DNA of 64,000 nt, from contig CBDFLE010000006.1 in NCBI GenBank assembly GCA_965248925.1, positions 963,700-1,027,699 on the forward strand. Reading direction: 5' to 3'. The notes beneath the pieces were generated by a model, which saw only the letters and a program-made list of their open reading frames with translations, was not told the origin of the DNA and did not search any database. This DNA is from Candidatus Multivoradales bacterium (lineage in GTDB: Bacteria; Acidobacteriota; Thermoanaerobaculia; Multivoradales; J023). The position numbers and the translations under genes are program-made. Shown in pieces: positions 2,930 through 43,702 of this stretch (its first letter is position 1; each line of letters opens with the position of its first letter).

Positions 2930-2970
2930 TATTCTCTGGTGCCTCGCAAGCTCGCTGTCACATGTCCGCT

Positions 2971-3950: not shown

Positions 3951-3954
3951 CATC

Positions 3955-6461: not shown

Positions 6462-7274
6462 TCAGTCCTGAGAAGCGATCTTGGCCAGTACATCAGGCCA
6501 AATCTCGCTCCAGCAACAACTGTGATCGAAGCCGGGATAGATCACCAGCTCGGCAGCTGAGAGCTCGGCCAGACGGCGGGACGCATCGGGCGGGATTCGC
6601 TCGTCGTCCTCACCCAACAGGTGCAACTGGCGGATGCTCGCCGGCAAGGGCGGACGGCGAGACGGGTCGAGGGAACCGAGCAGCGGGGTGTAGTGGTGCA
6701 GGTCGGCCCAGGCGACCAGGTCGAGATTGGCGGCGAGGGTGACCACGGCTCGCACCTTGGGCAACCGCTCGGCTAGCAACATGGCCAGCACACCACCGCC
6801 GCTGTAACCCACCAGCACGATCTGCTCGACCGGAGGCTCGGCTAGCAAACTGAGCAGGGCCTGTTCCATTGCTGCCACCACCCGCGGCGAGTAGCGCGCC
6901 AGGGTCCACAGTAAAGGGTCGCAATCGTCGGTCTGGCGCCAGCGGTTGTAGCACGGCCGGCCCAAGTAGAGACTGGGGGCGGGATCGAGTTGCATCAGCT
7001 CGAAGGCCAGGGCGCGGCGCGGGTGCGGATCGGCGGCGACCAGCTGTTCGCCAATCCAGGGTCGGCCATCGCCTTCGAGATAGACGTGTAGCCGTCGATC
7101 GGTGCTGCTCCCGCCTTTACGGTAGGCCACGTGGTGGAAGTCGCCGCCCACCAACACCAGGCGCTGATAGCCGGCGGCGGCGGCGCGAGCCTCGAGGTGG
7201 GCGGCAGGGGTAGGCGTCGTGACACAGCCAACGACGGCCAACGAACAAAGCAGGGTGGCGGCGCGCCGGTTCAT
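6462..7274 (-). CDS. Secreted alpha/beta-hydrolase lipoprotein.
   Basis: Signal peptide with lipobox (LAVVGC) and nucleophile elbow GYSGGG. Confidence 0.6.
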   Translation of the reverse strand: MNRRAATLLCSLAVVGCVTTPTPAAHLEARAAAAGYQRLVLVGGDFHHVAYRKGGSSTDRRLHVYLEGDGRPWIGEQLVAADPHPRRALAFELMQLDPAPSLYLGRPCYNRWRQTDDCDPLLWTLARYSPRVVAAMEQALLSLLAEPPVEQIVLVGYSGGGVLAMLLAERLPKVRAVVTLAANLDLVAWADLHHYTPLLGSLDPSRRPPLPASIRQLHLLGEDDERIPPDASRRLAELSAAELVIYPGFDHSCCWSEIWPDVLAKIASQD

Positions 7275-9253: not shown

Positions 9254-9283
9254 GCTGGTGGCCTCTCGATCGGTGGTCGAACT
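9000..9283. repeat. Direct repeat copy 2 (5' end of the kinase gene plus ~30 nt of leader), ~88-90% identical to 10444..10727.
   Basis: Manual nucleotide comparison of the two regions. Confidence 0.75.
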
Positions 9284-9522
9284 TCCCTTGTGCTTGTCGC
9301 TGGCCTCATGAGCCCAGAGCGTATTGTGCCCCGGTAGACCAAGCGTTTCGAGTCTTCTTGGCAGGCCATCGGCAAGGAATCAGGAGACCTGGTCGCGGGG
9401 GCAATCCGCAGAATCGTCGAGAGAACCCCCCTTGACTCCGCGGAACCGACGACTAATACTCCTCATGGAGGCTCGGCTCAGGGGCTGCTCTCGGGTGGCT
9501 CTGAAGGCATTGCCTCCTTTTT

Positions 9523-10413
9523 TCATTCCCCACCTCGTCTGGCCTCGTACGGGTCCGGTACAAAAACGATGCCGTAGGACTCGAAAACGACCCCGTCCCG
9601 GGCTCCCTTCCCTCGGAATTGAAGCTGAGTGAGCCATTGACCATAGTCGTCGGCGATCTCCTTTCGAGTCGGCGCATCCATCCCTCGAGGCGGCAGCCGA
9701 AAACCCCAATTCACACAGTAGATCGCCAGGTCTGCGGCCTGGACCGGGTAGGTCATGTCAGAGGAGACGAAAAACGGCGCCGGGACGATCCACGCCGACC
9801 GATAGCGGCCCGTCTTCGTTCTCCGGAAGTATCCCTGGAGGCGGCGGACGAAGCGGCGGTCCTCAGCCTTTTCCACTTCGTCCATCACCAGCAGACCGTG
9901 CTGTTTTTCCTGCTCCAGGAGATAGAAGTAGCGCTCGAGAAGGAAGACCTGATCCTTGCGAAGGTACTCCTCCGCCTTGAATGTGTCTGGCTTGATGACG
10001 CTGCGCGGGATCGCGGCGGCAAATAATTGAGCTTTGTGTTGTCTGAGCAGCTCAAAGATCCCCGTCGCCATCTCCAGGGACGCCTGTCCGTAAGCCGTGA
10101 ACTCCACCCGCAGCGGCGGCTTCTTCTCCAGCCCCTTGGTGAGAAATCCCCGGCAATGCTTGCGGCGCTCCTCGTCAGGCATCCTCGACCCCTGGGCCGC
10201 CCACTTGTAGCGATCCTTGTCCAAGAGCTTGCAGCCCTTGAGTTCCGTCCGGAACTGATGCAGCGTGGTCCCGAAGGAGTCCAGCTCCAGACGCTGCATG
10301 TCCTGTACAAATGACCACAGCTCCGAAGCATGCAACGCCACACCGCCCCTAACCTCGTAGGGCATGGTCCGGTGGTCGTGACCGCTCTCATCCAGGAAAA
10401 GCAAATAGCTCAT
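9523..10413 (-). CDS. DUF3800 domain protein.
   Basis: N-terminal MSYLLFLDESGHD and C-proximal QAADL motifs typical of DUF3800. Its start overlaps the stop of the upstream kinase-fragment ORF (ATGA). Confidence 0.65.
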   Translation of the reverse strand: MSYLLFLDESGHDHRTMPYEVRGGVALHASELWSFVQDMQRLELDSFGTTLHQFRTELKGCKLLDKDRYKWAAQGSRMPDEERRKHCRGFLTKGLEKKPPLRVEFTAYGQASLEMATGIFELLRQHKAQLFAAAIPRSVIKPDTFKAEEYLRKDQVFLLERYFYLLEQEKQHGLLVMDEVEKAEDRRFVRRLQGYFRRTKTGRYRSAWIVPAPFFVSSDMTYPVQAADLAIYCVNWGFRLPPRGMDAPTRKEIADDYGQWLTQLQFRGKGARDGVVFESYGIVFVPDPYEARRGGE

Positions 10414-10697
10414 CCGGCGATCTCCAAGGGCTCCTCGATCTCATCCTCGGCGACGCTGAAATCATAGAGCTGGGCGATCCCCGGATAGCGTAGCCGGGTC
10501 GCCACCTGCGCCTTGCGCAAGAAACGGGCCTGCAGATCAGGATCCTCGCGAAACTGGGAGCGGATCATCTTGAGCACCCGCAGTTCATCGAGAAAGACAT
10601 GGCGAACCTTATACACCGCCCCCATACCGCCCTCGCCCATCTTGGCGACGACCTCGTACTTGTGCTCGATTTCCGGGCTCAGGTGAAGCTCAGTCAA
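10410..10697 (-). pseudogene. Truncated duplicate of the Ser/Thr kinase N-terminus (95-aa ORF: Gly-loop + VAIK Lys + aC only). Acts as a leader ORF for DUF3800.
   Basis: Protein MTELHLSPEIEHKYEVVAKMGEGGMGAVYKVRHVFLDELRVLKMIR... is ~90% identical to aa 1-85 of the full kinase. TTG start. It ends 9 aa after the homology stops. Confidence 0.6.
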
Positions 10698-10727
10698 GGT
10701 GCCAAGCCCCTCGATCGGCGGTCGATA
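10444..10727. repeat. Direct repeat copy 1 (diverged duplicate of the kinase 5' end plus leader).
   Basis: Manual alignment to 9000..9283. Confidence 0.75.
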
Positions 10728-11169
10728 CCGCCACCCGTTTCGCTCTCAGCGGTTGCACCTAATTCGGGATTCACTTGCATCCGCTTGCCGAAAGAGGATC
10801 AAGCCTCTGCAACATCAGGACGTTGTTGTGGGGAGGACGCTGCAATCGGCCGCGACTCTCAGCCAACTCTTGCTGGTCGCCATTCGGCACTGATCTCACA
10901 GACTCCATCTTCGCCGGGCGCCGCATGGAGATCCGCCGAGTCACGACGGAACATCTCTGCAGATCACTGACGGTCTGGCGGGATGGGACTCGGTCTGGCG
11001 CACAGCATAGATCTTCTCACGACCGAAGATCGCCTGCACGAGGAACCGATAGAGCGACAGTGATCGCCTCAAGACGGTGGCCGAGAGCGGCGCAGAGCAC
11101 CCGCACAAGGCAACAAAAAGCCGGCTGCACACCTGGTTGCAACCGGCTTTCGAGGCTCCAGCGAACTTC

Positions 11170-13614
11170 CTAGAACCTGAAGTTGCCCCGCAGGTACCAG
11201 GAGCCACCCTCGTAGTTGGCGGCACTGCGCCGGGGATATTGCAGGCCAACGCTCTGACGGTTGGCAAAGGGGGCATTGATCTCCTCGACGAATTCGTCGA
11301 AGACATTGATCGCCCCGACGGCAATGCCGACGTGCTGATTGACCTGGAAGCCAAGCTCAAGATCGATGTAAACGGTTGCCCCGATTTCTGCGGACGGCGA
11401 GCTGGATGCGCCGATGCGGCCGCGTTCGTCGAAGTGCTTGCCGTAGTAGTTGGCCCGAGCCAGCAGATTCCAATCTTCACCCAAACTGGTATTGGCGGTC
11501 AGCACCAGGCGCTCGTTGGGGTAGTTGTTCTCGATGTCCTCGATGATCCCTTCGCTGACCGGATTGACTCCCGAGACCAGAGACTGATCGACCACGTCGA
11601 CCTCGTTGTAGCTAAACGCCAAGACCCAGCTGGTATCAATGGTCGGTGACCAGTCGAAACCAGACGTCAGAACAATATCGAGACCTTGCGACTCGACATC
11701 CAGAGCGTTGGTGTAGAACGAAATAGTCTGACCCTCGGTGTCAGGGACTGCAATGTCGCCAGTGCGGTAAATCCGGTCGTCGACCTCGATCTTGTAGGCG
11801 TCGACGGTCAGTGTCGTTCTGTCGCTGAAGCTATTCGAGAAGCCGAAGCTGAAGTTCAGTGACGTTTCCTCGGTTAGTGCCTTGCCGCCGACCGCCGCCA
11901 CCAACGGGCTGGTGGAAGGCACCAAACCTTCTTCGACCTGCAATCCGGTCACCCCGTCAAAGGTGGTGATGGTGGTGCGCACGTTAGCCTGGCCGGGGGT
12001 CGGTGCGTGGAAACCGGTCGACACCGCGCCGCGCAAGGTCAGCGAGGAATTGACCGAATAGCGCGAAGCGATCTTCCAATTCACCGTGCTGCCAAAGTCG
12101 GAGAAGTCCTCGAATCGCAGAGCGTACTGCATCAAGAAGTCGTCGCTGATGTCGTGCTCCACATCGACATAGAGTGCGATGTTGTCGCGATCAAAGGTGC
12201 CGGCATCGTCAAGACTGATGCCTTTTAGGCCATTGGATCCGGCGCCTAGAAACGAGTTGGGCTCGCCGGCTATCGCAATGTAGGTCTCTTCCCGCCATTC
12301 GGCGCCAAAGGCCAAGTTTATCTTGTCGCTGAGCGGCTTGGAGAAGTCGGCATTCAGATTCAGCTCCTCTTGCCGATAGCCACCAGCATCGAAGTCTCGC
12401 TGCGCCGGCTGGCCGTTGCTCAGACCCAGATCTGGATTGATTGTGTTGTTGAGGGTGTAGTCGAGTTCGTTCTCGCCGTAGCTAATACTGAAGTCGAAGG
12501 TGGTGTTTCCAGCGAACACGCCGGTGAGCCCGGTGACCAAGCTCAAGTCGGTCTGCTCACCATCGAGAAAGGGGGTGTAGCCCGCTTGCAAGCCGGTGAA
12601 CCCTTGCTCGCGCAACGGCACCAAGCTCGAATGCTGGGGATTGCGATAGAAGAACCGGTAGCGGCCGTCGGTTTTGGCGTAGTTGCTCTGGAAGTAGAGG
12701 AAGGTGCTCTCGGTCGGGTTGAAGCCGGAGTTGAGAAAGAAGCGAGTGCCCTGAGTTTCCGGCCGGCCCCAAGTTTGCACCAGGGGCGTATCACCGAAGG
12801 GTGCATCGGCACCGACGCCCTGGACCCCAGCATCGATTAGAGCCTGCGCGTCAGGGCGCTGTACGCCCCGCGACAGAGCATCGTTATCGACATGCTCGAT
12901 GCTGAGATTGACAAAACCGGTCTCACCGAGCGAGAAGCCGCCGTTGGCGGCAACCTTGAGCGAATTCTCACCCTCGTAGTGCTGACCAAACTGAACCTGG
13001 ACTTCAGAACCCTGGGAGGCATCCTTCATTTTGAAGTTGATCACTCCGGCGATGGCATCCGAGCCATATTGGGCGGCGGCACCATCGCGCAACACCTCTA
13101 CTCGCTCGACGGCGATACCAGGCAACATGCCAACATCGACGCCATGCGCGCCATTACCCGCCGCCGGGGCAAAGAATTGCACCAAGGCCGAGCGGTGGCG
13201 GCGCTTGCCGTTGACCAAAACCAAGGTTTGATCCGGCGCCGTGCCGCGCAGCGAGGTGGGGCGAACAAAAGCACTGCCATCACCGGTAGCAGGGGTCGCG
13301 GTGTAGGAAGGCACCAAGGCCTTAAGGTTGTCTGTGAGATCGGCCGTATTGCCCATGGCGTTGAATTCTTCTGCCGAGATGATGTCGACGGGCACCGGCG
13401 AATCGGCTACTGAGCGGGGCTTGGTGCTGCGCGAGCCGAGCACGACGATCTCATCTGAGAAGTCCTCCTGCTCCTCGGCAACAACTTCTTCCGCCGTGTC
13501 CTCGGCCGCTGAAGCGGCCGCATCTTCCTCTGGCTGGGCGATCAAGGCCTGGGCCATCAATACCGCACCGGCAGTGGTCGCCGCCGACAAAAACTTCCAG
13601 GTTCTTCTGTTCAT
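11170..13614 (-). CDS. TonB-dependent outer-membrane receptor.
   Basis: Signal peptide, plug-domain motifs (IERVEVLRDGAAAQYGSDAIAGVINFKMK) and C-terminal YLRGNFRF with terminal Phe. Confidence 0.85.
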   Translation of the reverse strand: MNRRTWKFLSAATTAGAVLMAQALIAQPEEDAAASAAEDTAEEVVAEEQEDFSDEIVVLGSRSTKPRSVADSPVPVDIISAEEFNAMGNTADLTDNLKALVPSYTATPATGDGSAFVRPTSLRGTAPDQTLVLVNGKRRHRSALVQFFAPAAGNGAHGVDVGMLPGIAVERVEVLRDGAAAQYGSDAIAGVINFKMKDASQGSEVQVQFGQHYEGENSLKVAANGGFSLGETGFVNLSIEHVDNDALSRGVQRPDAQALIDAGVQGVGADAPFGDTPLVQTWGRPETQGTRFFLNSGFNPTESTFLYFQSNYAKTDGRYRFFYRNPQHSSLVPLREQGFTGLQAGYTPFLDGEQTDLSLVTGLTGVFAGNTTFDFSISYGENELDYTLNNTINPDLGLSNGQPAQRDFDAGGYRQEELNLNADFSKPLSDKINLAFGAEWREETYIAIAGEPNSFLGAGSNGLKGISLDDAGTFDRDNIALYVDVEHDISDDFLMQYALRFEDFSDFGSTVNWKIASRYSVNSSLTLRGAVSTGFHAPTPGQANVRTTITTFDGVTGLQVEEGLVPSTSPLVAAVGGKALTEETSLNFSFGFSNSFSDRTTLTVDAYKIEVDDRIYRTGDIAVPDTEGQTISFYTNALDVESQGLDIVLTSGFDWSPTIDTSWVLAFSYNEVDVVDQSLVSGVNPVSEGIIEDIENNYPNERLVLTANTSLGEDWNLLARANYYGKHFDERGRIGASSSPSAEIGATVYIDLELGFQVNQHVGIAVGAINVFDEFVEEINAPFANRQSVGLQYPRRSAANYEGGSWYLRGNFRF

Positions 13615-20732: not shown

Positions 20733-22682
20733 TCAGCGCTGCAAGTAGGTGTAGCCCTCCAGGCCTTGGCAGTAGAGGTCGATCAGCTGCCGGGCCTGCG
20801 AACGATTCATGCGGCCGGCCTCGAGGGCACCCTCGATATTGCGACGCAGCTGGCGTAGCAGCTGGCGATCATCATACTCGACATAGGCCAACACCTCGCT
20901 GATGGTATCTCCCGGTACGACGTGCTCAATCCGGTATCCACCGTCCTGGTCGAGCGAGGCGTGCACGGCATGGGTGTCGCCGAATAGATTGTGCAGATCG
21001 CCGAGGATCTCCTGATAGGCACCCACCAGGAAAGCTCCCAGGTAGTAGGGCTGCTGGTCGAGGGAGTGCAGCTCGAGTTCAGGCTGGCCACCCGGCGGGC
21101 CAATGAAGCAGTCGACAACCCCGTCCGAATCGCAAGTTATGTCGGCCAGCACACCACGACGGCTGGGGAACTCATCCAGGCGATGGATCGGCATCAGCGG
21201 GAAAAGCTGGTCGATGGCCCAAGTATCGGGTAACGACTGGAACAAGGAGAAGTTGGTGAAGTAGATGTCCGCAAGCCGCCGGCCGAGAACCTCAAGCTCA
21301 CCGGCAGGTGCGGCGCAGGCGGCACGCTGCAACTGCCAAACCCGACGACAGAGGGCCTCGAAGATGTCTTCAGCCAGCACTCGCTCCTCAAGCGACAAGT
21401 GGCCAAGATTAAACAGGCTGAGGCATTCGTCGCGATACTGCAAGGCGTCGTGATACGCCTGGCGGCAGGTCGTCGCGTTGAGCCCATGAAAGGCCTGCAG
21501 CAGATGCACCAAGGGCGGCTCGGCGTCGGCGGGAGGTGCCGACGGGATCTCAACCCGCCGCGGCTGGCGCACGTCGAGGACTTCGAGCACTAACACCGCA
21601 TGGTGCGCCACCGTCGCTCGGCCAGCTTCGCTCACCACCACCGGATGGGGCACTCCCTCGGCATCACAGATCTCTTGAATACCGAAAATCACGCCGTTGG
21701 CGTACTCCTGCAGGGAGTAGTCGATCGACGAGCCCGCGCTCGACCGCGAGCCGTCGTAGTCGACCCCGAGACCACCGCCTACATCGAAGTAGCCCAAGGG
21801 CGCGCCGAGGCGGATCAACTGCACGTAGACCCGCGCCGCCTCACGCCAGGCTTCCTTGAGATTGCGAATCGAAGAGACTTGGCTACCGAGGTGAAAGTGC
21901 AACAGTTCGAGCCGGTCGAGCAAACCCCGACGGCGCAGCAGCGCCACCGCCTCGACCATCTCGCGAGCGCCGAGGCCAAATTTGGAGCGCGCACCCGCAG
22001 AAGCCTGCCAATGGCCCGAACCGCGGGTCGCCAGCCGGGCGCGCAGGCCAAGCCGCGGCGCAACCCCAGTTCGCTGAGCCACCTGCAATATCAGCGGCAG
22101 CTCTGCCGGCTTCTCCAGCACCAGGATGACCCGCGGCCCAAGTCGCGACGCCAGCAGAGCCGCCTCGATGTACTGCTCATCCTTGTAGCCGTTGCAGATC
22201 ACCAAAGCCTCAGGATTGTCGAGCAGCGACATCACCGCCAGCAGCTCAGGCTTGCTGCCGGCTTCCAGGCCATAGTGAAACGGCCGGCCGGCCGCCACCA
22301 GCTCTTCGACCAGAAAGCGGTTCTGATTCACCTTGATCGGGTAGACCGGGCGATAGGCAGCCTGGTAGCCATGGGCTGCGATGGCGTTGGCGAAGGCACT
22401 TTGAATCTCCGCCAACCGTGCCTTGAGGACATCGGAGAAGCGAATCAGCAGCGGCGGATCGATGCCCCGTTCGACGATCTCATCCACCAACCGTTTGAGA
22501 TCCAGCCCGCCACTACCGACCACCTCCGGCGCCACCTCGATGTGGCCGCGGGGGTTGATCGAGAAAAATCCTCGGCCCCAACTGTCGACCCGGTAGAGCT
22601 CGCGAGAATCTTTGATCGTCCAGCAGGCCTCGGCGGGGCGCGAAGACGGTCTTGCGGCATTGGCTCGGAGTCGGCTGGACAT
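20733..22682 (-). CDS. speA: Biosynthetic arginine decarboxylase.
   Basis: YPIKVNQ, HFHLGSQ, DVGGGLGVDYDGS and WTIKDSRELYRVDSWGRGFFSIN N-terminal signature. Start is ATG at 22682 or 22688. Confidence 0.9.
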   Translation of the reverse strand: MSSRLRANAARPSSRPAEACWTIKDSRELYRVDSWGRGFFSINPRGHIEVAPEVVGSGGLDLKRLVDEIVERGIDPPLLIRFSDVLKARLAEIQSAFANAIAAHGYQAAYRPVYPIKVNQNRFLVEELVAAGRPFHYGLEAGSKPELLAVMSLLDNPEALVICNGYKDEQYIEAALLASRLGPRVILVLEKPAELPLILQVAQRTGVAPRLGLRARLATRGSGHWQASAGARSKFGLGAREMVEAVALLRRRGLLDRLELLHFHLGSQVSSIRNLKEAWREAARVYVQLIRLGAPLGYFDVGGGLGVDYDGSRSSAGSSIDYSLQEYANGVIFGIQEICDAEGVPHPVVVSEAGRATVAHHAVLVLEVLDVRQPRRVEIPSAPPADAEPPLVHLLQAFHGLNATTCRQAYHDALQYRDECLSLFNLGHLSLEERVLAEDIFEALCRRVWQLQRAACAAPAGELEVLGRRLADIYFTNFSLFQSLPDTWAIDQLFPLMPIHRLDEFPSRRGVLADITCDSDGVVDCFIGPPGGQPELELHSLDQQPYYLGAFLVGAYQEILGDLHNLFGDTHAVHASLDQDGGYRIEHVVPGDTISEVLAYVEYDDRQLLRQLRRNIEGALEAGRMNRSQARQLIDLYCQGLEGYTYLQR

Positions 22683-22847
22683 CGGCATGGCCCTCGCGGT
22701 CTGGCGCCCTCGGAATCTGACCCACCGATCCGACCCTCCAGCAGAAGGAACCATCCCAGGAAAGGAGTGGGTTCTAGCACGCGGATGAACGGCCTCGGCG
22801 ACAAGATCCGGCAGTGATCGAAGTCTGGTCTGAGGCCCACGGCCCAC

Positions 22848-23151
22848 GACAATCTACAACTCTAGCAAGGCTGTCGACCAGCTTCTAGAAGGAAACACCG
22901 AGAACCACCGGGTGATCACCTGGAGCCTATCGGTTAGCAATCTAAGTATGCTAAAATTATAGGTTAGCTATTCAAGCTATTCAGATGTCAAGAGGAGTGC
23001 GAGGTCTTGGTGGAGGTCTCTCCCTAAGGGTTCTTGAGTGTCTGCAATCTAGTAATTTCTCTTTATCGACTAGGAAAAAAGCGTTTCTATTCGGTTCGTA
23101 GGTCTGTTTCTTTTACGGACCGCTGCCCGTGGAGCGGTTCAGTTATCCGCT
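22848..23151. promoter_or_regulatory. AT-rich intergenic/regulatory region between divergent speA and the TIR gene, with imperfect direct repeats ggttagcaatctaag / ggttagctattcaag.
   Basis: Marked local GC drop. Repeated ggttagc motifs read directly. Confidence 0.45.
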
Positions 23152-24645
23152 GTGATGCCGATCGAGACTGATATTTTCATCAGTTACGCCCACCTCGACA
23201 ACGAGGTCGTCGGAGCTGAGACCGAAGGGTGGATCTCATGCTTCCACCGCTCTCTGGAAGTCCGCTTGGCCCAGCTGCTGGGTCACAAGCCACGGATCTG
23301 GCGCGATCCCAAGCTGCAGGGAAACGACTACTTCGGCGACGAGGTCAGCGAGCAGCTGCCCCGCGTGGCCACCCTGATCCCGGTCTTGACGCCACGCTAT
23401 ATCCGCTCCGAATAGTGCCAGCGAGAGCTGGAGACTTTCCTGGCCGAAAGCCGCTACGCCGGCCGCGAGCGGATCGGCAACCAGGCCACGGTTTTCAAGA
23501 TCGTCAAGACACCGATCCCGATCACCGAGCAACCCACGCCGATCCAGGACCTGCTGGGCTACGACTTCTTCAAGCTCGACCCCAAAACTCTGCGAGTTCG
23601 CGAGCTCAGCCAATCACAGGAATCTGAATACCAGCGCGAATACTGGGCTCGCTTCGAAGATCTGGCACAGGACATCGGCAAGCTGCTCGAGCAGCTTGCC
23701 GACGACGACCCACCCTCTACCCCGGCAGCCGGCCAGAGAAACCGGGGCAAGGTCTATCTGGCCGACACCACCTTCGACCTGCGCGAGTCCCGCGACGCCC
23801 TGAAGCGCGACCTGCAGCAGCACTGCTACACCGTGCTGCCCGACCGCACTTTGCCACCGATCGCTCCGGAGCTCGAAGCTACGGTTGCTGCGGGGCTGGC
23901 CGAGACGGCCCTCTCGATCCACCCGATCGGCGCCAATTACGGCTTCGTTCCTGAAGGCGCCACTTGCTCGGTGCTGGAGATCCAGAATGAGCTGGCCATC
24001 GCTCGCCATATCGAGGGCGGCATGCAGCGGTTGATCTGGATCCCCTCCGATCTGGTGATCGAGGATCCGCGTCAGCTCGCTTTCGTCGACCTACTGCGCC
24101 AGGACACGCGTGCTCAAACCGGCGCTGATCTGATGGAGACCACGCTCGAAGACTTCAAGCTGGTCATGCATCAGAAGCTCGCCCCACCACCTGAAGACGA
24201 AGCTACCGATGGCGATAGTGATGGCGATGGCGACCCGCTGCAACGCGTCTACCTGATCTGCGATCGGCGCGATTTCGAAGCCGTCGCGACCCTTGAAGAC
24301 CGTCTCGTTGACCTTGGCTTCGAGGTCATCCTGCCGGCCTTCGACGGCGACGAGGCGCAGGTCCGCGAAGACCACCTGGAGAATCTCAAAATCTGTCAGG
24401 CGGTGCTGATCTTCTGGGGTCAGGCCAACGAGTTCTGGCTCCGCGCCAAGCTGCGCGACCTGCTCAAGATCGGTGGCTACGGTCGCCGCCAGCCCCTGGC
24501 TGCCAAAGCGATCTGGGTAGGCTCGCCAGCCAGCCCACGCAAGCAGCGTCTACGCACCCATGAGGCCGCAGTGATCCATGCCGAGGCCGGCTTCGACGAC
24601 GCCCTCCTCGGCCCATTCCTGGAACATCTGGCAACCCCCGAGTGA
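23152..24645 (+). pseudogene. TIR-domain protein (N-terminal TIR plus two further TIR/SLOG-like modules), interrupted by an in-frame TAG at 23413-23415.
   Basis: DIFISYAHLDNE TIR start. Frame 1 is continuous from 23152 to 24645 except for one amber codon. Read-through gives ...PRYIRSE[*]CQRELETFL, so the stop sits at the conserved Trp of the TIR SxWCxxEL motif (TGG to TAG). Confidence 0.7.
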
Positions 24646-25440
24646 TGAGCTGCGTTCAGCCAATCAACCTCGACAACCCGTTTCCGGGCCTGCGCGCCTT
24701 CGAACCAGAAGAGGAGCATCTGTTCTTTGGCCGCGAAGAGCAGGTCGACGAGCTGATGCGGCGACTGCGTCGCACCCGTTTCCTGACCGTCGTCGGCAGC
24801 TCGGGCAGCGGCAAATCGTCGCTGGTGCGCTCGGGATTGATCCCGGCGCTGCACAGCGGCTACATGGTGGAGGCCGGCTCGAGCTGGCGCATCACCGTCT
24901 TCAGGCCCGGCGACGATCCGATCGGCAACCTTGCCGAAGCGTTGGTCGATCCGGAGGTGATCGGTGATCCCGAGCAGCCGCCGGCGATGCTGCGCGGCAT
25001 CCTCGAAGCAACCTTACGACGCGGCAACCGCGGCCTGCTCGAGGCGGTTCGCCAGGCCAAGATGGGGAAGCACGACAACCTGATGTTGGTGGTCGATCAG
25101 TTCGAGGAGATCTTCCGCTTCAAGCGTAGCGCCAACAAATCGGCGGTGGGCGATGCCGCCGCCTTTCTCAAGCTGCTGCTTGAAGCCGCCAAGCCAGACG
25201 ATCTGCGAGTCTACATAGTGCTCACCATGCGCTCCGATTTCCTCGGTAGCTGTGTCGAATTCCACCGTTTGCCAGAAGCGATCAACCAAGGCCAGTACCT
25301 CGTACCGCGGATGACCCGTGACGAACGTCGGGCGGCGATCGAAAGCCCAGTGGCGGTAGCCGGTGGCGAGATCTCTCCCCGCCTGTCGCTGCGACTGCTC
25401 AATGATGTCGGTGACAATCCCGATCAGCTGCCGATCCTGC
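24645..25440 (+). pseudogene. STAND/NACHT-like P-loop NTPase, 3'-truncated (N-terminal ~265 aa only).
   Basis: NPFPGLRAFEPEEEHLFFGREEQVDELMRRL, Walker A VVGSSGSGKSSL, Walker B LMLVVDQFEE. Homology stops abruptly after DQLPIL, where the LPLLQHAL-type motif is expected. Translationally coupled to the TIR gene (TGATG). Confidence 0.65.
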
Positions 25441-26888
25441 CAGGGCAACGATCGCACCCTCTTTCTGATCGATGGAGTGGAGGAGAACGATCTGTGGTCG
25501 AACATCGCCTATCTTTCGCGCCAATACCCGCTGTCCGACATCGACCGCATCGAGGTGGTCTACGGCCCGGCATCGACCATGTATGGCCCCAATGCTTTCG
25601 TCGGGGTGATCTCGATCTTGACCAAGAACGCCCGCCAACTAGTCGCCGCGGGCGAACGCATGGCGCTCCGCGCCGAGGCCGGCGGTGGTAGCTGGTCGAC
25701 TTCCTGGGTCGACGCCACGGTGGCGGCGCGCAGTGACTCTGGCAGCGTCGACTTCACCCTCACCGGCCGCTTCTACAGCTCGGAGGAGTTTGACCGCTCG
25801 AGCTTTGCCGACTGGGACTACGACCCGTCCTTCTACGCTCCGGAGAACGACGCGGTGCGCGGTGGCAGCAATTACCGCGGCCTCAACACCGAGCAGACCG
25901 AGCGCGCCCGCGACGATCTCAAGCTGGTGCTCGGCGGACGCCTCGACAACAACGACGCCGGGGCCCGGGTCGGGGTGCTCGACGCCGCGGGAAATCCGCT
26001 GGTGGTGACCGGCGCTATGGCAGTGAGTTCAATCCCCGCCTGGCGGTGGTCTACAGCCCCGGTGATCTGGTCCTCAAAGCGATTTACGCAGAGGCCTTCA
26101 AGGACGCCTCGAATTTCAACCGGTACGCCACCGCCGCCGGCATTCGGGACCTGCAGAACCCGTTTCTCAAGCCTGAGAAAATGGAGAATTTTGAGCTCGC
26201 CCTGGGCTGGGAGGGGGCGGCCCGGTGGAGCACTCAAACCAGCATCTACCAGGCAACCTACAGTGGCGCGGTCGGCCAAGTGCGGGTGCCGTTTCAGGGC
26301 GGCAGCACCGTCCAAAACCAGAATGTCGGCGCTCTCAAGATCCACGGACTGACGACCTCCGCGCGGTACCGGCGCGAGGGCTTCGGACTGTTCGCCAACT
26401 ACAGCTGGACCGAGCCGAAGAACCTCCAGCCCAGGGACAGCGCGGGCGACCGCTACCTCGACCCCGACGGCCGGCCAATCGCTGAGGTGCGGCTTGGCGA
26501 CATCGCCGAGCACCGTCTCAACCTGGGCCTCGACCTGGCATGGCGGGTGCACTTCGAGTTCGACCTGCGGCTGTCATGGGTCGGTGACCGCGACACCTTC
26601 GATGTTTGCAGCAACTGCCTGCCAGGTGGAGGCACCAGAGACGGCGAGCCTCCAGCGATGGCGACTGTCGGCAATCCGCTGCGCGAGATCGACGCCTATC
26701 TCGATGTCAACGCCACTCTGACCTGGAAAGATCCACTGCCCGCCAGCCGCCTGCAGCTGGTGCTGCGGAATCTGCTCGACAGCGAGTACGAGCACCCCGG
26801 AGTCCGCAGCGCCGATGGCAGGGTGTTCGCCACCAGCCAGCCGCAGAACGAGCGCAGCATCTTCCTCCGCTGGGCGGTGGGATTCTGA
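25440..26888 (+). pseudogene. TonB-dependent receptor remnant: 5'-truncated (starts mid plug domain) with an internal frameshift near 26000-26045.
   Basis: DRTLFLIDGVEENDLW...IDRIEVVYGPASTMYGPNAFVGVISILTK plug motifs with no signal peptide or TonB box. Frame switch before EFNPRLAVVYSP. C-terminal LRWAVGF. Confidence 0.65.
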
Positions 26889-26912
26889 GCCGGTGGAACC
26901 ACGAAGAAATCC

Positions 26913-27594
26913 GTTGGGCAGCCGGCCAGCGACTCGCGTCGACTTCATCAAGACTTCGCCGAGCGGCAACATCACGGCGCTGGTGCTACCGCTGGTGAAG
27001 CGCTCGCGGCAGGTCGAGATCGCCCATCGCCTGCTGCGCTACGACCCGCAGCTCGAGCAGGTCGGATTCGTCGAGCCCGCAGCGGGCAAAGCTATGGCCC
27101 GACTACAGATGATGGGCGGCGAACTGTGCGGCAACGGCGCCTGTGCGCTGGCCTGGCATCTGCGATCCCAGGTCGAACCAGTGGCCGAAGGTAGGCGCCG
27201 CCTGCGGCGGGCGATCATCAGCCCCCACAACCTGCCGTCTCTAGCCACTTTTCTCAACCACTGCGGCCATCTGGTAGAGCACTCCTACCCTCAGCTGCGG
27301 GGCTACGGCGAGCCCCGGTTGGCGGTGTGTGCGCAGCTCAGCGGCGCTGCCGATCTACACTACCGCATCGATCCAGCCTGCCTCGATCAACAGCTGGGGA
27401 GCGGCCAGGAAGGCGAAGACCATCTGCTGATCGATGGCACCAACCCGGCCGCTCTGCAGACCGCCCAGGCGCGGGGCTTCTACCCGGTGGCCCTACTGCC
27501 CTACACCGAAGACAGCGCCACTACGCACCTGCTGGGGTTACCCGCCAAGCGTCTCGCACTGCGCTATTCTGGGCCGCCCGCAAGGGTCGACTGA
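26913..27594 (+). CDS. DapF/PhzF-like epimerase-fold protein (hypothetical).
   Basis: VDFIKTSPSGNITALV and MMGGELCGNGACALAWHL resemble DapF FxKMHGxGNDF and CGNG active-site motifs. Putative TTG start. Confidence 0.35.
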
Positions 27595-29257
27595 TGCGCT
27601 TCAGCTTCCGGCGCCAGCTTCTCGAATTATTCGAGATTCGCTCTGGCGAAGGCCTTGCGATCGGTCTGCTACTGCTCTACTCGTCGTTGTCGGGCATTGT
27701 CGTAGGGTTCTATTTCACGGTCGCCAACGCCGCTTTCCTGAGCCAGTTCGACCTCTCCCAACTGCGCCAGATCCTACCCTTCGCCTATATGGCTTCGGGG
27801 GTCGTGGCAGCGCTGGCGGCGGCTCTTTTCGCTACCGCCGAGCATCGTCTCTCGCTACCCACGCTGCTGCTTGGCAATACGGCCTGCTTATTTTTCGTCG
27901 TGGGGGGCTTCGCGGTGGGATTCGGGCGCTCCAGCGGCGACCTGCTCAGCATCGCCAGCATTGTCTTCGTCGTCCCCATCCTGACCTTGCTCGATCTCGG
28001 CTTCTGGGGGTTTGGCCGGAGGTCTGCTCGACCTCGAACAGAGCAAGCGCCTACTCGGCGTCGTCAGCTCGGGCGAGGTGCTGTTAGCAGCGCTGAGCTT
28101 CCTCGCCGTGCCGTTGCTCTTCGACGCTGGCTTCGGCGCCGTGCTGCTGCTGACTCTTGCCACCGCCGCCTTACTCGCGACCCTACTCCTACTGCCGGTG
28201 ATCTTCGCCTGCCACCGGCAACGCCTCGAGGACAGCGGCGAGACTCTCGCCGAGCGATCCGCCGATGAGCCGGACGCGGCAGTCCAGAACAGCGCGGCGC
28301 GACGCTACCTAGCCCTGATGACCGCGGTCACCTTGCTGTTCATCCTGACGCAGTATTTTGTCGACTACAGCTTCCTAACCGAGATCCGCCAAACGATTCC
28401 GCAGCGGGGGGAGCTGACCCGCTTTCTAGGTTGGTTCTTCTTCGCCACTAAGACTCTTGAGTTGATCGTCAAGACCGTCGGGCTCGGCCGCCTGCTGCGC
28501 CATTTGGGCCTGTTCGGCGCCGGTGGCCTGCTGGCGCTGCTGGCCCGCAGCCCGATCCTCGGCGGCCTGGGGCCACGGCTGATGATCATGGCTTCGCTGC
28601 TCTGTGCCTGGTTGGCGGCCAGCTTGGCACTCTTTAGCGAGTATCGCGAACACCTCCTGGAGGCCCTCGACCGGCAAACTAGCCAGCTGCTCAACTCTCC
28701 GCTGGAGACCATCCGCAATCAGCTGGCGGGCGCCGAGCGCGATGAGCTGAGACTAGTGCTCAACGTGCTGCAGCGAGTCGAGCCGGAGTTCTTCAACCGT
28801 TCGCTGGCCGAGCTGCTGAGATCGCCGAAGCTGGCCAGCCGGAGCGAAGCGGTGGAGAGGGTGATCGAGCTGCGGCTGCTCCGAGCAGGGATAGAGCGGT
28901 TCGAGGCGGCTGAGAGCGATCTTCAGCTGCGCCAGCGGGCCGCGGAAGCCCTGCGCATCCTTAGACCAGGCCGAGCACTCTTCTAACACCCTCGAGAAAG
29001 TCACGGCACTGGCCGCCGGGGCGCTGCTCGAAACGGTAGGCAGTGCTCCCCAGGAGCTGTTCCTCAAGCTGCTCGCGGATGCCGACGTCCTGGGGGAGAT
29101 CGCGGTATTCGAATCCGGCAAACGGGTTGCCAACGCCACCTCTATCGGCCCAAGCCGTCTGCTGCGGGTCGACCGCCAGCAGCTCACCGACCTGCTGGCA
29201 GACCACTTCGAGATGCTACCGACATTTATCCAGGTCATCACCCAACGCCGGGCCTGA
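27594..29257 (+). pseudogene. Npt/TLC-like MFS transporter - HEAT repeat - partial cNMP-binding domain gene, disrupted by two frameshifts (~28010 and ~28985).
   Basis: Three consecutive frames carry protein-like sequence: MRFSFRRQLLELFEIRSGEG...(TMs); ...LFSEYREHLLEALD...HEAT...; ...DVLGEIAVFESGKRVANATSIGPSRLLRV... First shift is at a G5 run (ttctgggggttt). Confidence 0.5.
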
Positions 29258-29367
29258 AGGATCCCCCGGAGGGTCCCGATGAGACCCAGGAGCACGAGAT
29301 CGAAGCTGACTATCGCCACGATCCACGGGATTTGATTGACACCCTCGAGCGCTTCAATGCCTTCGAG

Positions 29368-29745
29368 CTATCCGCCGACCTCTTCGGTCGTGGCGTCATC
29401 AGCGCTGGCGGCAAAGCTGGCCACCGCCTCGGCTTCGTCGTCGTAGGATTCCAACAGCGGTAGGACCTGGCTGATCTCGAGCACGTCGCGAATCCGCCCA
29501 GCGGTCGACAGCAGCTTGAGCCGCGAGCCAAAACGGCCCGCCAGGCGATAGCCGGCCACCAACTCGCCAACCCCGGCACTATCGATACGGCTGAGTCCGG
29601 ACATGTTGAGCAGGATCTGCTTCCACTCGGCGGCAACCAGTTCGTTGATCACCTCGCGCAGCATCTCCTCAGGGCCACCGGCGATCAGACGGCCTTCGAG
29701 ATCGACGATCAGAGTTTTGCCGGACTGACGAAGTTCTACGTGCAT
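29368..29745 (-). CDS. STAS-domain anti-sigma-factor antagonist (SpoIIAA-like).
   Basis: LIVDLEGRLIAG...LNMSGLSRIDSAGVGELVAGYRLAGRFGSRLKL. Confidence 0.7.
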   Translation of the reverse strand: MHVELRQSGKTLIVDLEGRLIAGGPEEMLREVINELVAAEWKQILLNMSGLSRIDSAGVGELVAGYRLAGRFGSRLKLLSTAGRIRDVLEISQVLPLLESYDDEAEAVASFAASADDATTEEVGG

Positions 29746-29871
29746 AAGCTAAGCTCTCCTGGGTTCGCGGAGGCCGCAGGATAGCACGGCCAGAGGGCGG
29801 TGAAGCGATCGTCAGGGCACCGTCACAACAACCTCGGCGGCAGAGGGAATGTTGAGCAAGGGAGAGGGTCG

Positions 29872-30170
29872 ATGGCCGAGCGAGCAAGCGAGCAAGACAC
29901 CGCCGTAGGCGATTTCATGAGGCGGAATTTCCGCCACTTCAACGCCCGCTCTGTGGTCGAAGCGGCCGCCGCTTGGGTTGCTCAGCTAGACCAGGGCAAC
30001 CACATGTTCCTTACCTTGGCGGGGGCCATGAGCACTGCTGAAATCGGCCTACAACTGACCGAGATGATCCGCCGCGGCAAAGTCCACGGCATCTGCTGCA
30101 CCGGCGCCTACCCCGAGGAAGAGCTGTTCAACCTAGTCCCCCACGACCACCATGTGGGCTTCCGGATTGA
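29872..30170 (+). pseudogene. Deoxyhypusine synthase-like gene, 5' fragment only (~100 aa), paralogous to 37756..38736.
   Basis: MAERASEQDTAVGDFMRRNFRHFNARSVVEAAAAWVAQLDQGNHMFLTLAGAMSTAEIGLQLTEMIRRGKVHGICCTGAYPEEELFNLVPHDHH, then homology is lost although the ORF continues as low-complexity junk. Confidence 0.6.
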
Positions 30171-30217
30171 TCGAGAAAAACCCTCGGCCCCAGCGGTCGA
30201 CCGAGTAGGGATCGAGC
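30163..30217. repeat. ~55-nt segment ~85% identical to speA 5' coding region (22556..22610), at the breakpoint of the DHS-like fragment.
   Basis: attgatcgagaaaaaccctcggccccagcggtcgaccgagtagggatcgagcgag vs gttgatcgagaaaaatcctcggccccaactgtcgacccggtagagctcgcgag. Minus-strand translation gives ...DRWGRGFFSINP. Confidence 0.55.
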
Positions 30218-30376
30218 GAGCTGGCGGTCGCTGCTTGTGGCGGCTCGAGGGCGGATTGATCGACCGTCTACCTGGCTGCGTAGCATTAGGATACGATCCC
30301 CCCCACCAAACGCCTTATGAACACCAGAATCTTGGACTTCTTGCCGATGAACATTGCTGCAGATTGGCCGCGGCGC

Positions 30377-35921: not shown

Positions 35922-36605
35922 TCAATCGACGGTGAAGCCCTGCAGCTCGACCGGCACCAACGAGCAGCCGGTGGCGGTGACTTCGATGATGTCCAGGGTG
36001 TACGCTCCGGCAGCTGTGTTCCAGCCATCGGCGATCAAGAAGTAATCAGTCCCTGCGGTGGCAGTGAAAGTAATGTCTTCTCCGGTACCACCATTGTCCT
36101 GGGAAGCGATGCAAGTTCCCGCCAGATTCGTGCAGTCGGTGACGACGTAGATCACCTCGTCATGAGCGCCATCTATCAGAGCATTGACATCGCAGGTGAC
36201 ATCGACTTGCACCCGCCAGGCTTCGTCGTTGGCGCTGCTATTGAAAGTCGTGTCACAAACCCCACCGATGCCGGCGATGTCATAGTCGGCGGAAAGAGCG
36301 GTGGTGTCACCGCCACTGGAGTACGGCACGGCGCCAACCTCGTTCGTCGTGCCAGGGCACATGTCAGCGGGCGCGCGATTGATCGGCAGGACCTTCTGAC
36401 CCAGGATGGTCGCGGTGCCGGCCGGAGCCTTGGCGGCTGGCATCATCTCTTGGTAGGCGGCCCGCTCGCTCGGGGTCAAGCTATGCCAGGTCAATTTGAC
36501 CTGATCCCAGTCGATGTCCTGAGCGGCGAGAGGGCTGGTGAGCAGCAAGGCGACAATGGCTAGCAAACAAGCGAGGCGTGAGAAGCTCTTCATGAATAAC
36601 TCCAA
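35922..36605 (-). CDS. Secreted Cys-rich protein with PPC-like C-terminal domain ending in the tail EVTATGCSLVPVELQGFTVD.
   Basis: Signal peptide MKSFSRLACLLAIVALLLTSPLAA. The C-terminal tail recurs at 37388 and 43702. Confidence 0.55.
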   Translation of the reverse strand: MELFMKSFSRLACLLAIVALLLTSPLAAQDIDWDQVKLTWHSLTPSERAAYQEMMPAAKAPAGTATILGQKVLPINRAPADMCPGTTNEVGAVPYSSGGDTTALSADYDIAGIGGVCDTTFNSSANDEAWRVQVDVTCDVNALIDGAHDEVIYVVTDCTNLAGTCIASQDNGGTGEDITFTATAGTDYFLIADGWNTAAGAYTLDIIEVTATGCSLVPVELQGFTVD

Positions 36606-36730: not shown

Positions 36731-37285
36731 TCAAGCGAGGCGGGGCGGCGGGTCCGGCGGCGCGCCCTCAAATAGCCTAGCGATCAGCGGTACGGAGGCC
36801 GACGAGGCCGCCAGAGAGGCCTCGGGCAGGCCGGGAACCCTACGGAGGTCCGCCGGGCTCGAACGCTGCGACGACGTCGCGGATTGCGTATCCTGACACC
36901 GCGGCACCTGGACGTCGAAGCTGCCGAGCACCACTTCGCGGTCGACGATCACCTCGCTACCGCGCGCGGCGACCCGCAGCTGGTAGGTCTGGACTCCGTC
37001 CGAAGCCGAATGACCTACCCGGTAGTCGGCGTTGCCGGGGATCGCCGGCAGCTCGTAGAGCAGCTCGAAGTCCTCCAGGCCACCGCGGCGGTAGAGCCGG
37101 AACACCCAACCGGGGCCGGCAGTGGTCGCCTCCCAGGCAATGTCGAGTTCCCCCGTCGAGTGGATCACCAGGGGCTGCTGCGCGGCTACCTCCGCGGACC
37201 GCGGCGTCACCGGCAACTCGACCCGCGCGGACGCAGGTAGGCCTTGCCACACGACTACAAGGCAACTCGCAATGGCCCCGACCAT
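36731..37285 (-). CDS. Secreted hypothetical protein.
   Basis: 184-aa ORF with N-terminal hydrophobic segment. No recognisable domain. Confidence 0.35.
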   Translation of the reverse strand: MVGAIASCLVVVWQGLPASARVELPVTPRSAEVAAQQPLVIHSTGELDIAWEATTAGPGWVFRLYRRGGLEDFELLYELPAIPGNADYRVGHSASDGVQTYQLRVAARGSEVIVDREVVLGSFDVQVPRCQDTQSATSSQRSSPADLRRVPGLPEASLAASSASVPLIARLFEGAPPDPPPRLA

Positions 37286-37387
37286 CCACCTCCCGGCAGG
37301 ATCGGATACGGAAACCCGTCGTTCGTTTCTGATAGGGGATTACTACCACAGAGACCCGTTGCCCGCAAGCGCATCCCGGCTTGGCGG

Positions 37388-37582
37388 TCAATCGACCCTG
37401 AAGCTCTGCAGCTCCACCGGGATCGAGCAACCGGTGGCGGTGGCTTCAGAAATCTGCCGCCAGGCGGCGGCGATCAGCTCGTTGATCACTCCGCGAAACA
37501 TCTCCTCAAGGCCGCCGGCGACCCGACGGCCTTCGAGGTCGACGATCAAGGTGCTGCTGGACTGACCAAGCTCTACCTGCAT
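37388..37582 (-). pseudogene. Chimeric 64-aa ORF: N-terminal 45 aa of a STAS antagonist paralog fused to the C-terminal tail ...ATGCSIPVELQSFRVD of a secreted-protein paralog.
   Basis: MQVELGQSSSTLIVDLEGRRVAGGLEEMFRGVINELIAAAWRQ is ~85% nt-identical to 29620..29745. The last 65 nt are ~85% identical to 35922..35987. Confidence 0.5.
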
Positions 37583-37643
37583 GGGCTATGCTCCCCGGGC
37601 GCCGCAGGGTGTCTTGCAAACCGTGCCAAGGTCTGCGGAAACC

Positions 37644-37755: not shown

Positions 37756-38736
37756 TTGAGCGACGAAAATATCTCAGTGCGCGACTTCATGCGGCGCAAC
37801 TTTCGCCACTTCAACGCCCGCTCGGTGGTCGAGGCGGCCGACGCCTGGGTCGCTCAGCTGCGCCAGGGCAACCACATGTTTCTCACCCTGGCTGGGGCGA
37901 TGAGCACCGCCGAGATCGGCCTCCAGCTGGCCGAGATGATCCGCCGTGGCAAAGTCCACGGCATCTGCTGCACCGGCGCCAATCTCGAGGAAGACCTGTT
38001 CAACCTGGTCGCCCACGACCACTACCAGCGGATCGCCGATTGGCGTTCGCTGACCGCCGGGAATGAGGCCGAACTCGCCGAGCACGGCCTCAACCGGGTG
38101 ACCGACACCTGTATCCCTGAAGTCCAGGCGATGCGCAAGATCGAGCAGCTGATCGCCCTGCGGTGGCACGATGCCGAGGCCGCTGGCCAGCGCCACCTGC
38201 CGCACCAGTTCGTCTATCAGCTGCTACTCAGCGGCGACCTCGAGGAGGCTTACCAGATCGATCCCAACGACTGCTGGCTATTGGCGGCGGCGCAGCGGGA
38301 CCTGCCCCTCTTCGTCCCCGGCTGGGAGGATTCGACCCTCGGCAACATGTTCGTCGCCCGCCATCTGAGCGGCGAGATCGCCAATCTCGACACCGTCAAA
38401 GGGGGCTTGCACTACATGCAGGAATTGGTCGATTGGTACCGCCGCGAGACGGCGGAGCGATGTCTCGGGTTTTTCCAAATCGGTGGCGGAATCGCCGGCG
38501 ATTTCCCAATCTGCGTGGTGCCGCTGATCCAACAGGATCTGGACCAGGAGATTGGCTTGTGGTCCTACTTCTGCCAGGTCAGCGACAGCACCACCTCCTA
38601 CGGCTCCTACAGTGGCGCGGTGCCGAACGAGAAGATCAGCTGGGGCAAACTGGCGCCGGAGACGCCGAAGTTCATCATCGAGAGCGACGCTTCGATCGTC
38701 GCGCCGCTGGTCTTCGCCTGGGTCCTGGCAAGCTAG
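37756..38736 (+). CDS. Deoxyhypusine synthase-like (DHS/homospermidine-synthase family) protein.
   Basis: FMRRNFRHFNARSV...TLAGAMSTAEIG...KVHGICCTGANLEEDLFNL. TTG start with GAGGAG RBS. Confidence 0.75.
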   Translation: MSDENISVRDFMRRNFRHFNARSVVEAADAWVAQLRQGNHMFLTLAGAMSTAEIGLQLAEMIRRGKVHGICCTGANLEEDLFNLVAHDHYQRIADWRSLTAGNEAELAEHGLNRVTDTCIPEVQAMRKIEQLIALRWHDAEAAGQRHLPHQFVYQLLLSGDLEEAYQIDPNDCWLLAAAQRDLPLFVPGWEDSTLGNMFVARHLSGEIANLDTVKGGLHYMQELVDWYRRETAERCLGFFQIGGGIAGDFPICVVPLIQQDLDQEIGLWSYFCQVSDSTTSYGSYSGAVPNEKISWGKLAPETPKFIIESDASIVAPLVFAWVLAS

Positions 38737-42893: not shown

Positions 42894-43078
42894 GCTGCTT
42901 GCAGGCCCAGTTTGATCCATGGTATTCTTCCTCTACTAATTAAAGACTAGCGGAACTTGAGGGAGATCCAAGGCCCGCTCGACACTCTCCCCGTGCCTTG
43001 CCGGCGGAGAAAGTCAACCCAACCCCAACGCCCCTCTGCGGTCTCACTTTCAGACCAGCGGATCGGAGGAATTCTGGA

Positions 43079-43702
43079 ATGTTGAAGATTGCACGCTTTG
43101 CCTTGATCGCCGCCGCCCTCTGCCTGGTGGTCGGCAGCGCCTGGAGCACCGGCAGCGTCACCACCGGCGATGCCGCGGTGCCAATCCCTGACAACTCCGC
43201 CGGCACTTTCGCCTGCCAATCGCTGATGGTGGCTGCCGACGGGGTCAACGGTGACAACATCACCGATCTGACGGTGACCATCGGTGTGGATCACTCCTGG
43301 GTTGGCGACACCACCCTACAGCTGACCGGCCCGAATTGTGGCCCACTCAACGTTTACGCCCGCCCGGGCGCCGCGGCCGGCGTCGGCGCCGGCGATTCGA
43401 GCGATCTCTGCGCGGCGACGCCGCTCGGCTTCAACGATGGCAACGCGACGGATGCCGAAACCATGGGCGCCCCCGAAGCTGGCGGGTCCTGCGTCGGCAC
43501 TTCCGGTCCGCTGGCGTATTTCTCCAACGGTGACGAGGTGGGTGGTGCGATGACCCTGACCGGCTGTGTTGGCACGGATGCGGTGGGCTCCTGGATGCTG
43601 TGCATCGACGACGCCGGGGGTGGCGACACCGGCACTCTGCAGACCTGGACCCTCGACGTGACCACCGATCCGGTGGAGCTGATCGAGTTCAGCGTCGACT
43701 GA
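43079..43702 (+). CDS. Secreted protein with P-domain-like region ending in the tail ...TLDVTTDPVELIEFSVD.
   Basis: Signal peptide MLKIARFALIAAALCLVVGSAWS. GGAGG RBS. The C-terminal motif is shared with 35922..36605. Confidence 0.55.
   Translation: MLKIARFALIAAALCLVVGSAWSTGSVTTGDAAVPIPDNSAGTFACQSLMVAADGVNGDNITDLTVTIGVDHSWVGDTTLQLTGPNCGPLNVYARPGAAAGVGAGDSSDLCAATPLGFNDGNATDAETMGAPEAGGSCVGTSGPLAYFSNGDEVGGAMTLTGCVGTDAVGSWMLCIDDAGGGDTGTLQTWTLDVTTDPVELIEFSVD

Follow-up and report, generated by a model that had tools for sequence, protein, structure and literature searches.

The nSTAND1 proteins have been described as the central NTPases of predicted counter-invader systems, the effectors of which include TIR domains (Kaur, Iyer, Burroughs, Aravind, eLife 2021; PMC8195603). 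The window analysed here, a stretch of 64,000 nucleotides from contig CBDFLE010000006.1 of a Candidatus Multivoradales bacterium, contains a locus that resembles these conflict systems in two respects: the N-terminal 265 residues of its STAND NTPase are clearly of the nSTAND1 type, with both Walker A and Walker B motifs, and a TIR-domain gene lies directly upstream. Unlike the described systems, the NTPase of the window ends at position 239 of the 379 positions of the family profile, with the rest of the module and the C-terminal half known from a homologue in a metagenome contig (L001) missing, and the TIR partner is interrupted by an in-frame stop codon. The point at which the NTPase ends is joined to the remnant of a TonB-dependent receptor gene. 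Like the receptors of this class (PF07715/PF00593), the remnant has retained the second half of the plug, the last strands of the barrel and the terminal Phe, but in comparison with intact receptors it lacks positions 1-110 and 245-463 of a receptor model and carries a one-nucleotide frameshift.

We interpret the junction between these two remnants as a genuine deletion scar of at least 2 kb, possibly the result of more than one deletion, in a decaying genomic island, and we assign to this interpretation a probability of about 0.8. The junction is a case of ordinary gene decay and not a new system, and the TIR-NTPase pair of the window is a relic and not a working system. None of the PADLOC models recognises the pair.

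The junction between the NTPase and receptor remnants

Comparison of the open reading frame (ORF) 24642/24645-25691 with Pfam revealed a match to nSTAND1 (PF20703) with E=1.5e-68 in which profile positions 1-239 of 379 only are covered. On the basis of this match and of the identity to homologues, a 5′ fragment of 265 codons of an nSTAND1 STAND NTPase was delimited at 24645-25439 on the + strand. The fragment includes the Walker A motif (GxxGxGKS), present as GSSGSGKSS at 24795-24821, and the Walker B motif (hhhhDxFEE), present as LMLVVDQFEE at 25080-25109, in agreement with an earlier note on this DNA in which an NTPase carrying both motifs was described as cut in the middle of its domain. 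The best relatives of the NTPase in the database show 58-68% identity, and all of them run on as ...DNPDQLP(I/V)L-QHALMRTWD.... The similarity in the window stops at 25439, after ...DNPDQLPIL, and what follows in this frame, PGQRSHPLSDRW..., is unlike anything.

The missing parts of the NTPase were searched for in the whole window. A tblastn search with five longer NTPase homologues gave matches at 24654-25526 only, and residues beyond approximately 284 were absent in any frame. The helical and winged-helix part of the module that follows ...LPxLQHALxxxW (PF20703 positions 240-379) was likewise absent in any frame of the window, and nothing similar to the C-terminal sensor/repeat region, as it is seen in the L001 homologue, was found in the window. 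A continuation of the NTPase in another frame, the finding named beforehand as one that would speak against a truncation, was thus not observed in the tblastn search of the whole window. The L001 homologue consists of a 398-aa call followed by an overlapping 392-aa ORF that continues the protein (...HESLMRCWTRL...), with a total of approximately 790 aa; as read by eye, the continuation, of about 520 further residues, contains TPR-like repeats and a hydrophobic stretch that resembles a transmembrane helix. Upstream of the L001 NTPase lies a gene whose product shares 43% identity with the TIR protein of the window over the last 300 residues of the latter and, since the same pair is found in L001 and in the window, the partner gene and the nSTAND1 NTPase form a conserved unit. 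In L001 itself, a metagenome contig of 1.59 Mb, the pair (6736-10354) is also split by frame changes, with the partner gene lying in two frames; assembly indels, or decay there too, could be the cause of these splits.

For the receptor, a hidden Markov model (HMM) of 763 match states was built from eight intact homologues and run on the three forward frames. Three pieces were found on the + strand. The first, which covers the second half of the plug and the initial strands of the barrel, lies at 25444-25845 in frame +1 and matches HMM positions 111-244 of 763 (E=5e-65). The frame reads GNDRTLFLIDGV... / GNDRTLFLIDGVEENDLW... from 25444 onwards, and Pfam Plug (PF07715) is matched over its positions 55-107 of 107 with E=2e-9; the proposed switch of frame at about 25440 to the second half of a plug domain is thereby placed at 25444. 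The second piece (GLNTEQTERARDDLKLVLGGRLDNN...), at 25879-25974 and also in frame +1, corresponds to HMM positions 464-495 (E=1.4e-4) and was supported by tblastn with two receptor proteins (P0124 and P0127). The third, at 26013-26888 in frame 0, corresponds to the last third of the barrel, with a match to HMM positions 495-760 at E=2e-95 (26013-26876), and the Pfam barrel family PF00593 is matched over its positions 230-436 of 436 with E=6e-22. This piece, present in a public protein collection as a 280-aa protein (P0121), ends in ...LRWAVGF, with the C-terminal aromatic Phe, followed by a stop codon at 26886-26888, as the earlier note had read it.

The lesions of the receptor gene are of three kinds. 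HMM positions 1-110, where the signal peptide, any N-terminal extension, the TonB box and the first half of the plug would be expected, are lost, and the sequence upstream of 25444 in the receptor frame is NTPase DNA; the absence of these elements had been noticed before, and it holds. Within the barrel, approximately 219 positions (HMM 245-463, about 650 bp) that are present in eight of eight homologues (alignment A1) have been replaced in frame by 33 nt at 25846-25878. Finally, a single nucleotide is missing at 26014-26015, where ACC GGC GC|TAT GGC AGT stands against the homologue consensus T-G-G-Y-G-(T/S), and the reading passes from frame +1 to frame 0; this deletion is the frameshift that had been suspected at about 26000-26045. 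Such a remnant cannot fold as a 22-strand barrel. The nearest intact receptors, of 750-830 aa, are 42-46% identical to the remnant. When intact receptors were compared with the window by tblastn, no N-terminal piece was found, the sole other match being to the gene of an intact and unrelated receptor (11170-13614). In the tblastn comparisons, neither the lost part of the NTPase nor those of the receptor turned up anywhere in the window, whichever frame was read.

The matches to both families greatly exceed chance, and the junction claimed in the earlier note could be refined to the four nucleotides CCAG at 25440-25443 (+ strand). They separate the last codon of the NTPase (frame 0), CTG at 25437-25439, from GGC at 25444, with which homology to the receptor sets in (frame +1). 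The two parts are not joined in frame. The homology of NTPase and receptor overlaps at the join by 4 nt at most. No direct or inverted repeats involving 25400-25480 were found, nor any repeat of 14 nt or longer at or near 25440. GC content is flat at 0.60-0.66 on both sides, and in tetranucleotide composition the short left flank of the junction correlates with the host sequence at 0.87-0.90 and the right flank at 0.95. Both remnants lie on the + strand and in the order expected after one simple deletion.

These features are compatible with the following course of events. An operon of the TIR partner gene and the nSTAND1 NTPase would have stood upstream of, and co-oriented with, a TonB-dependent receptor gene, and one deletion of at least approximately 2 kb would have removed the 3′ end of the NTPase gene (a minimum of about 520 codons, approximately 1.6 kb), anything that stood between the two genes and the first 110 or so codons of the receptor. 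A single deletion would be sufficient to make the junction, and it is the event that we infer. Being out of frame, the join would yield no working fusion, and the product would consist of 265 NTPase residues followed by a nonsense tail of 83 residues.

This tail (25440-25691, + strand) forms the end of a 348-aa ORF and is receptor sequence read in the wrong frame. A protein of 348 aa that is 100% identical to the ORF of the window (P0001), with the end ...PGQRSHPLSDRWSGG...RRGRRW, is present in the public protein collection, where it and the 280-aa product of the third receptor piece derive from one contig of 5,218,600 bp. The presence of this product in the collection, an ORF open for 348 codons and intact Walker A and B motifs might be taken to mean that a truncated P-loop protein has been kept for a function, for instance as a decoy or regulator of STAND NTPases, or that the junction has created a functional fusion. 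We regard this as extremely improbable, given that the tail is out-of-frame receptor sequence, that profile positions 240-379 and the C-terminal sensor parts are gone, that the TIR partner has a premature stop codon, and that the truncated form does not recur, its protein cluster having a single member.

Clustering of lesions in island X

The TIR-domain gene, the putative effector partner of the NTPase, occupies 23152-24645 on the + strand as a single frame of 497 codons with one stop, and was identified through TIR_2 and through its counterpart upstream of the L001 NTPase. The stop is an in-frame TAG at 23413-23415, within the TIR domain (...RYIRSE*CQRELE...). When the stop is read through, the TIR_2 score rises from 17.5 bits for the 87-aa ORF to 44 bits (E=3.6e-11, residues 8-107), with a match that spans the stop. 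From the usual motif of TIR domains, we take the TAG to stand, probably, at their conserved Trp. The downstream 270-aa piece of the TIR protein is a separate protein in the public collection, where the upstream 87-aa ORF as delimited here is absent. As to recoding of the TAG, the window gives no hint of a non-standard code, and its other genes end normally. The linked effector gene is then present directly upstream of the NTPase, yet it is not intact.

Two further ORFs follow the receptor remnant on the + strand. The first, at 26893-27594, resembles histidine racemases of the CntK type (NCBIfam NF033599 and NF052224, E of about 2e-10), with a match that is confined to profile positions 2-84 of approximately 260, that is, to the N-terminal third, and that lies far below the family cut-off; its intactness is uncertain. 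This CntK/HisR-like ORF could be the remnant of a metallophore-type cluster linked to the receptor. The second, at 27597-29257, reads in three frames as a membrane-transporter-like gene with a C-terminal cNMP-binding domain. It contains at least two frame changes, one at a run of five G residues (28006-28010) and one at about 28950-29030, and cNMP_binding is matched over its positions 33-89 of 89 only, in the third frame.

All these broken genes lie in a segment of approximately 6.7 kb (22690-29367, no strand assigned), referred to as island X, that was delimited by comparison with a relative. This relative is a metagenome contig of 1,031 bp (L007, 88% nucleotide identity) that carries in one piece the 5′ end of a deoxyhypusine-synthase-like gene (DS), a STAS gene and the 5′ end of speA. 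Positions 1-102 of its reverse complement correspond to 22521-22622 of the window (87% identity), and positions 190-945 correspond to 29394-30150 (88%). Between speA and STAS-DS, this contig has 87 nt where the window has 6,771 nt. Ahead of the TIR gene, a low-GC stretch (0.46-0.53) is found. An integrase, transposase, recombinase or tRNA gene, terminal repeats and target duplications were looked for within and at the borders of island X and at the junction, and none was found; tRNA genes and Rfam families are absent from the window as a whole. A SpeA-anchored search of genome contigs recovered relatives at 44-51% identity only, and a STAS-anchored scan of metagenomes recovered relatives at up to 54% identity only, none of them with speA or DS beside STAS. 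For those proteins of island X for which a look-up was possible, clustering at 90% identity or more gave no further members; DS, DcuC and STAS do have cluster mates at this level, those of DS and STAS being from JGI metagenomes.

The distribution of the damage was then evaluated gene by gene. Genes were called intact or broken according to the coverage of their Pfam profiles; GC3 frame plots and segmentation by codon usage were too noisy for a count of frameshifts, the GC3 bias being moderate. At least four of the five genes of island X are broken, and at least six independent inactivating lesions lie within 23.1-29.3 kb. Outside the island, approximately 25 genes cover their Pfam profiles completely or almost completely, the exceptions being a few fragments of partially duplicated genes. 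Among them are those for CoA-transferase (profile positions 1-366 of 366), DcuC (2-460 of 461), Peptidase_C25 (1-374 of 374), PlsX (1-320 of 324) and FabG (1-193 of 195), and essentially full coverage was also observed for KAS, TrkA, SpeA, IclR and the second receptor. The difference between four broken genes of five inside the island and none of 25 outside it is significant (Fisher p=1.8e-4). With some 25 intact genes in the remainder of the window, the damage is confined to this region and does not reflect general sequencing error. The list of lesions in the earlier note, which included the N-terminal loss and the frameshift of the receptor, holds as far as it goes; it had missed the internal loss in the barrel, the TAG of the TIR gene and the frameshifts of the transporter gene.

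This distribution bears on whether the junction might be an artefact of the assembly, that is, a chimeric join or a deletion collapsed by the assembler, both genes being intact in the real genome. Several points are in line with such an artefact. The genome is represented by one contig of 5.2 Mb, a sign, perhaps, of an assembly from long reads or from a metagenome; the evidence for the junction and for the small indels is the assembly sequence; short G/C-rich repeats, which are typical sites of sequencing error, contain two of the small lesions (the G5 run of the transporter gene, and GGCGGC changed to GGCGC in the receptor); and a degenerate pattern spanning the junction had no match in the metagenome contigs, which are independent of this assembly. 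On the other hand, no repeat of 14 nt or longer is present near 25440 that could cause a misjoin in the assembly graph, the homology at the join overlaps by no more than 4 nt, and composition is flat across it. As the flanks of the island, speA and STAS-DS, are adjacent in the independent contig of the relative, the two sides of the junction derive from a single ancestral locus. A chimeric join of unlinked loci is unlikely, and so is an internal deletion made by an assembler without any repeat. An artefact at the junction would also leave unexplained the TAG of the TIR gene and the in-frame loss of about 219 codons from the receptor, while genes elsewhere in the window are intact; the lesions of approximately 2 kb and 650 bp and the TAG substitution are not errors of the type made by a sequencer. 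Altogether, we consider an artefact improbable, and the lesions are presumably present in the living organism. Of the origins put forward in the earlier note, deletion or illegitimate recombination on the one hand and a chimeric join on the other, the first is thus favoured.

A scar of insertion has to be considered as well. A mobile TIR-NTPase cassette could have entered the receptor gene, or a block carrying the receptor could have recombined into the locus, with later loss of the outer parts. The whole region is an island with respect to the contig of the relative, a low-GC stretch precedes the TIR gene, and other scars of recombination are present, namely the DS/speA fragments at 30136-30150 and a kinase fragment at 10443-10700, both described below. 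Against these observations, no 5′ fragment of the receptor was found, be it upstream of the cassette or at any other place of the window, and the island contains no integrase, transposase, tRNA or terminal repeats. In addition, the NTPase is itself truncated, so that an event of the deletion type is needed anyway. An insertion as the origin of the junction appears very improbable to us.

The deletion scar agrees with what is seen in deletion pseudogenes of decaying islands, which are attributed to the deletional bias of bacteria: homology ends abruptly, the remnants are co-oriented, neighbouring genes carry several independent lesions, and the island is strain-variable and situated between conserved genes. 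The only oddity with respect to other deletion pseudogenes is the density of the lesions, at least six in 6 kb amid the intact genes of the window. Island X would then be non-essential DNA that decays under relaxed selection, and it was probably acquired in this lineage rather than lost in the relative.

Beyond the dependence on the assembly sequence, the sequencing-error-prone sites of two small lesions and the lack of a match to the junction pattern, which have been mentioned above and count against a deletion scar too, two further points weigh against it. A single deletion at 25440 is indistinguishable from several successive ones. Moreover, no close relative carries the NTPase or the receptor, the nearest being 68% and approximately 45% identical, respectively, and for this reason the ancestral arrangement, the length deleted and any microhomology are beyond reconstruction.

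For annotation, these data mean that the 348-aa "ATPase", the 280-aa receptor piece and the nearby pieces of 270 and 324 aa are fragments of dead genes, and neither a defence system nor a transporter should be annotated from them. The locus clearly illustrates how a predicted TIR/STAND conflict system is lost through deletion and point lesions. The deletion scar bears on no long-standing question.

Other scars at the speA-STAS-DS locus and elsewhere in the window

The genes that border island X carry rearrangements of their own. A fragment of DS comprising codons 1-118 (29800-30150) is 84% identical in amino acids and 85% in nucleotides to an intact DS at 37756-38736. It is abutted by a 5′ fragment of speA on the opposite strand (30136-30219), which shows 75% nucleotide identity to 22525-22607, and a decayed second copy of STAS (37283-37606) lies ahead of the intact DS. 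The order of the locus is speA - X - STAS - DS′ | speA′ - Y - STAS″ - DS - DcuC, where the block Y, composed of FG-GAP/ASPIC and TPR genes, has no detectable similarity to X.

A comparison of the 5′ segment of DS (264 nt) was made between the two copies of the window and two metagenome relatives, L007 and a second one (L006) that has yet another arrangement upstream of DS. The identities were 95.1% between the two relatives, 90.9% between copy 1 and L007, 87.1% between copy 2 and L007, and 84.8% between copies 1 and 2. In addition, the intact DS (37759-38300) is approximately 84% identical to positions 894-1440 of L006 over the first 500 nt and approximately 91% identical after that. This step in identity near 38,250 may be a recombination breakpoint, or it may reflect uneven constraint along the gene.

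A plain tandem duplication of speA5′-X-STAS-DS5′, considered for the three pairs of repeats that lie 7.6-7.9 kb apart, was found insufficient, X and Y being dissimilar and the truncated DS of copy 1 being closer to the relatives than the 5′ end of the intact copy 2. To judge from these similarities, the scars would fit the import of a diverged speA′-Y-STAS″-DS5′ block, without being proof of it. The junction could accordingly be viewed as a symptom of a hot spot of insertion and recombination at the short spacer between speA and STAS, with X as an older, decaying defence island and Y as a second island, a proposal that we put forward tentatively and hold to be possible but doubtful. Under such a hot-spot model, the foreign block speA′-Y-STAS″-DS 5′ would have been captured by homology-facilitated illegitimate recombination, anchored in DS at one end and joined illegitimately at the other. 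The position between the polyamine genes speA and DS (deoxyhypusine-synthase-like) would then be a hot spot that varies among strains.

A similar shape, repeat-insert-repeat, is observed at 9000-10700. An N-terminal kinase fragment of 86 codons (9000-9257 and 10443-10745) is 90% identical to a gene for a Ser/Thr-kinase-caspase protein at 7271-9253, and a DUF3800 gene (9523-10413) lies between the two kinase copies. The likeness to the speA-DS locus would suggest recurrent gene acquisition in this lineage. The kinase-caspase protein shows strong matches to the PADLOC models of the PD-T4-6 kinase (E down to 8.5e-76), so that the window contains at least one other defence-like gene.

Similar C-terminal motifs were noticed in three ORFs of the window: PVELQGFTVD at 35922-36605 (- strand), PVELQSFRVD at 37388-37582 (- strand) and PVELIEFSVD at 42998-43702 (+ strand). 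The shared PVEL-type motif may be a sorting or anchoring signal. In the ORF of 64 aa at 37388-37582, it is joined to residues 1-44 of the STAS copy. Finally, positions 1-6200 of the window score poorly with the codon model of the host and include a phage-type integrase (5022-6197) and an N-acetylmuramoyl-L-alanine amidase (1515-2153); this segment may be an integrated element or its remnant.

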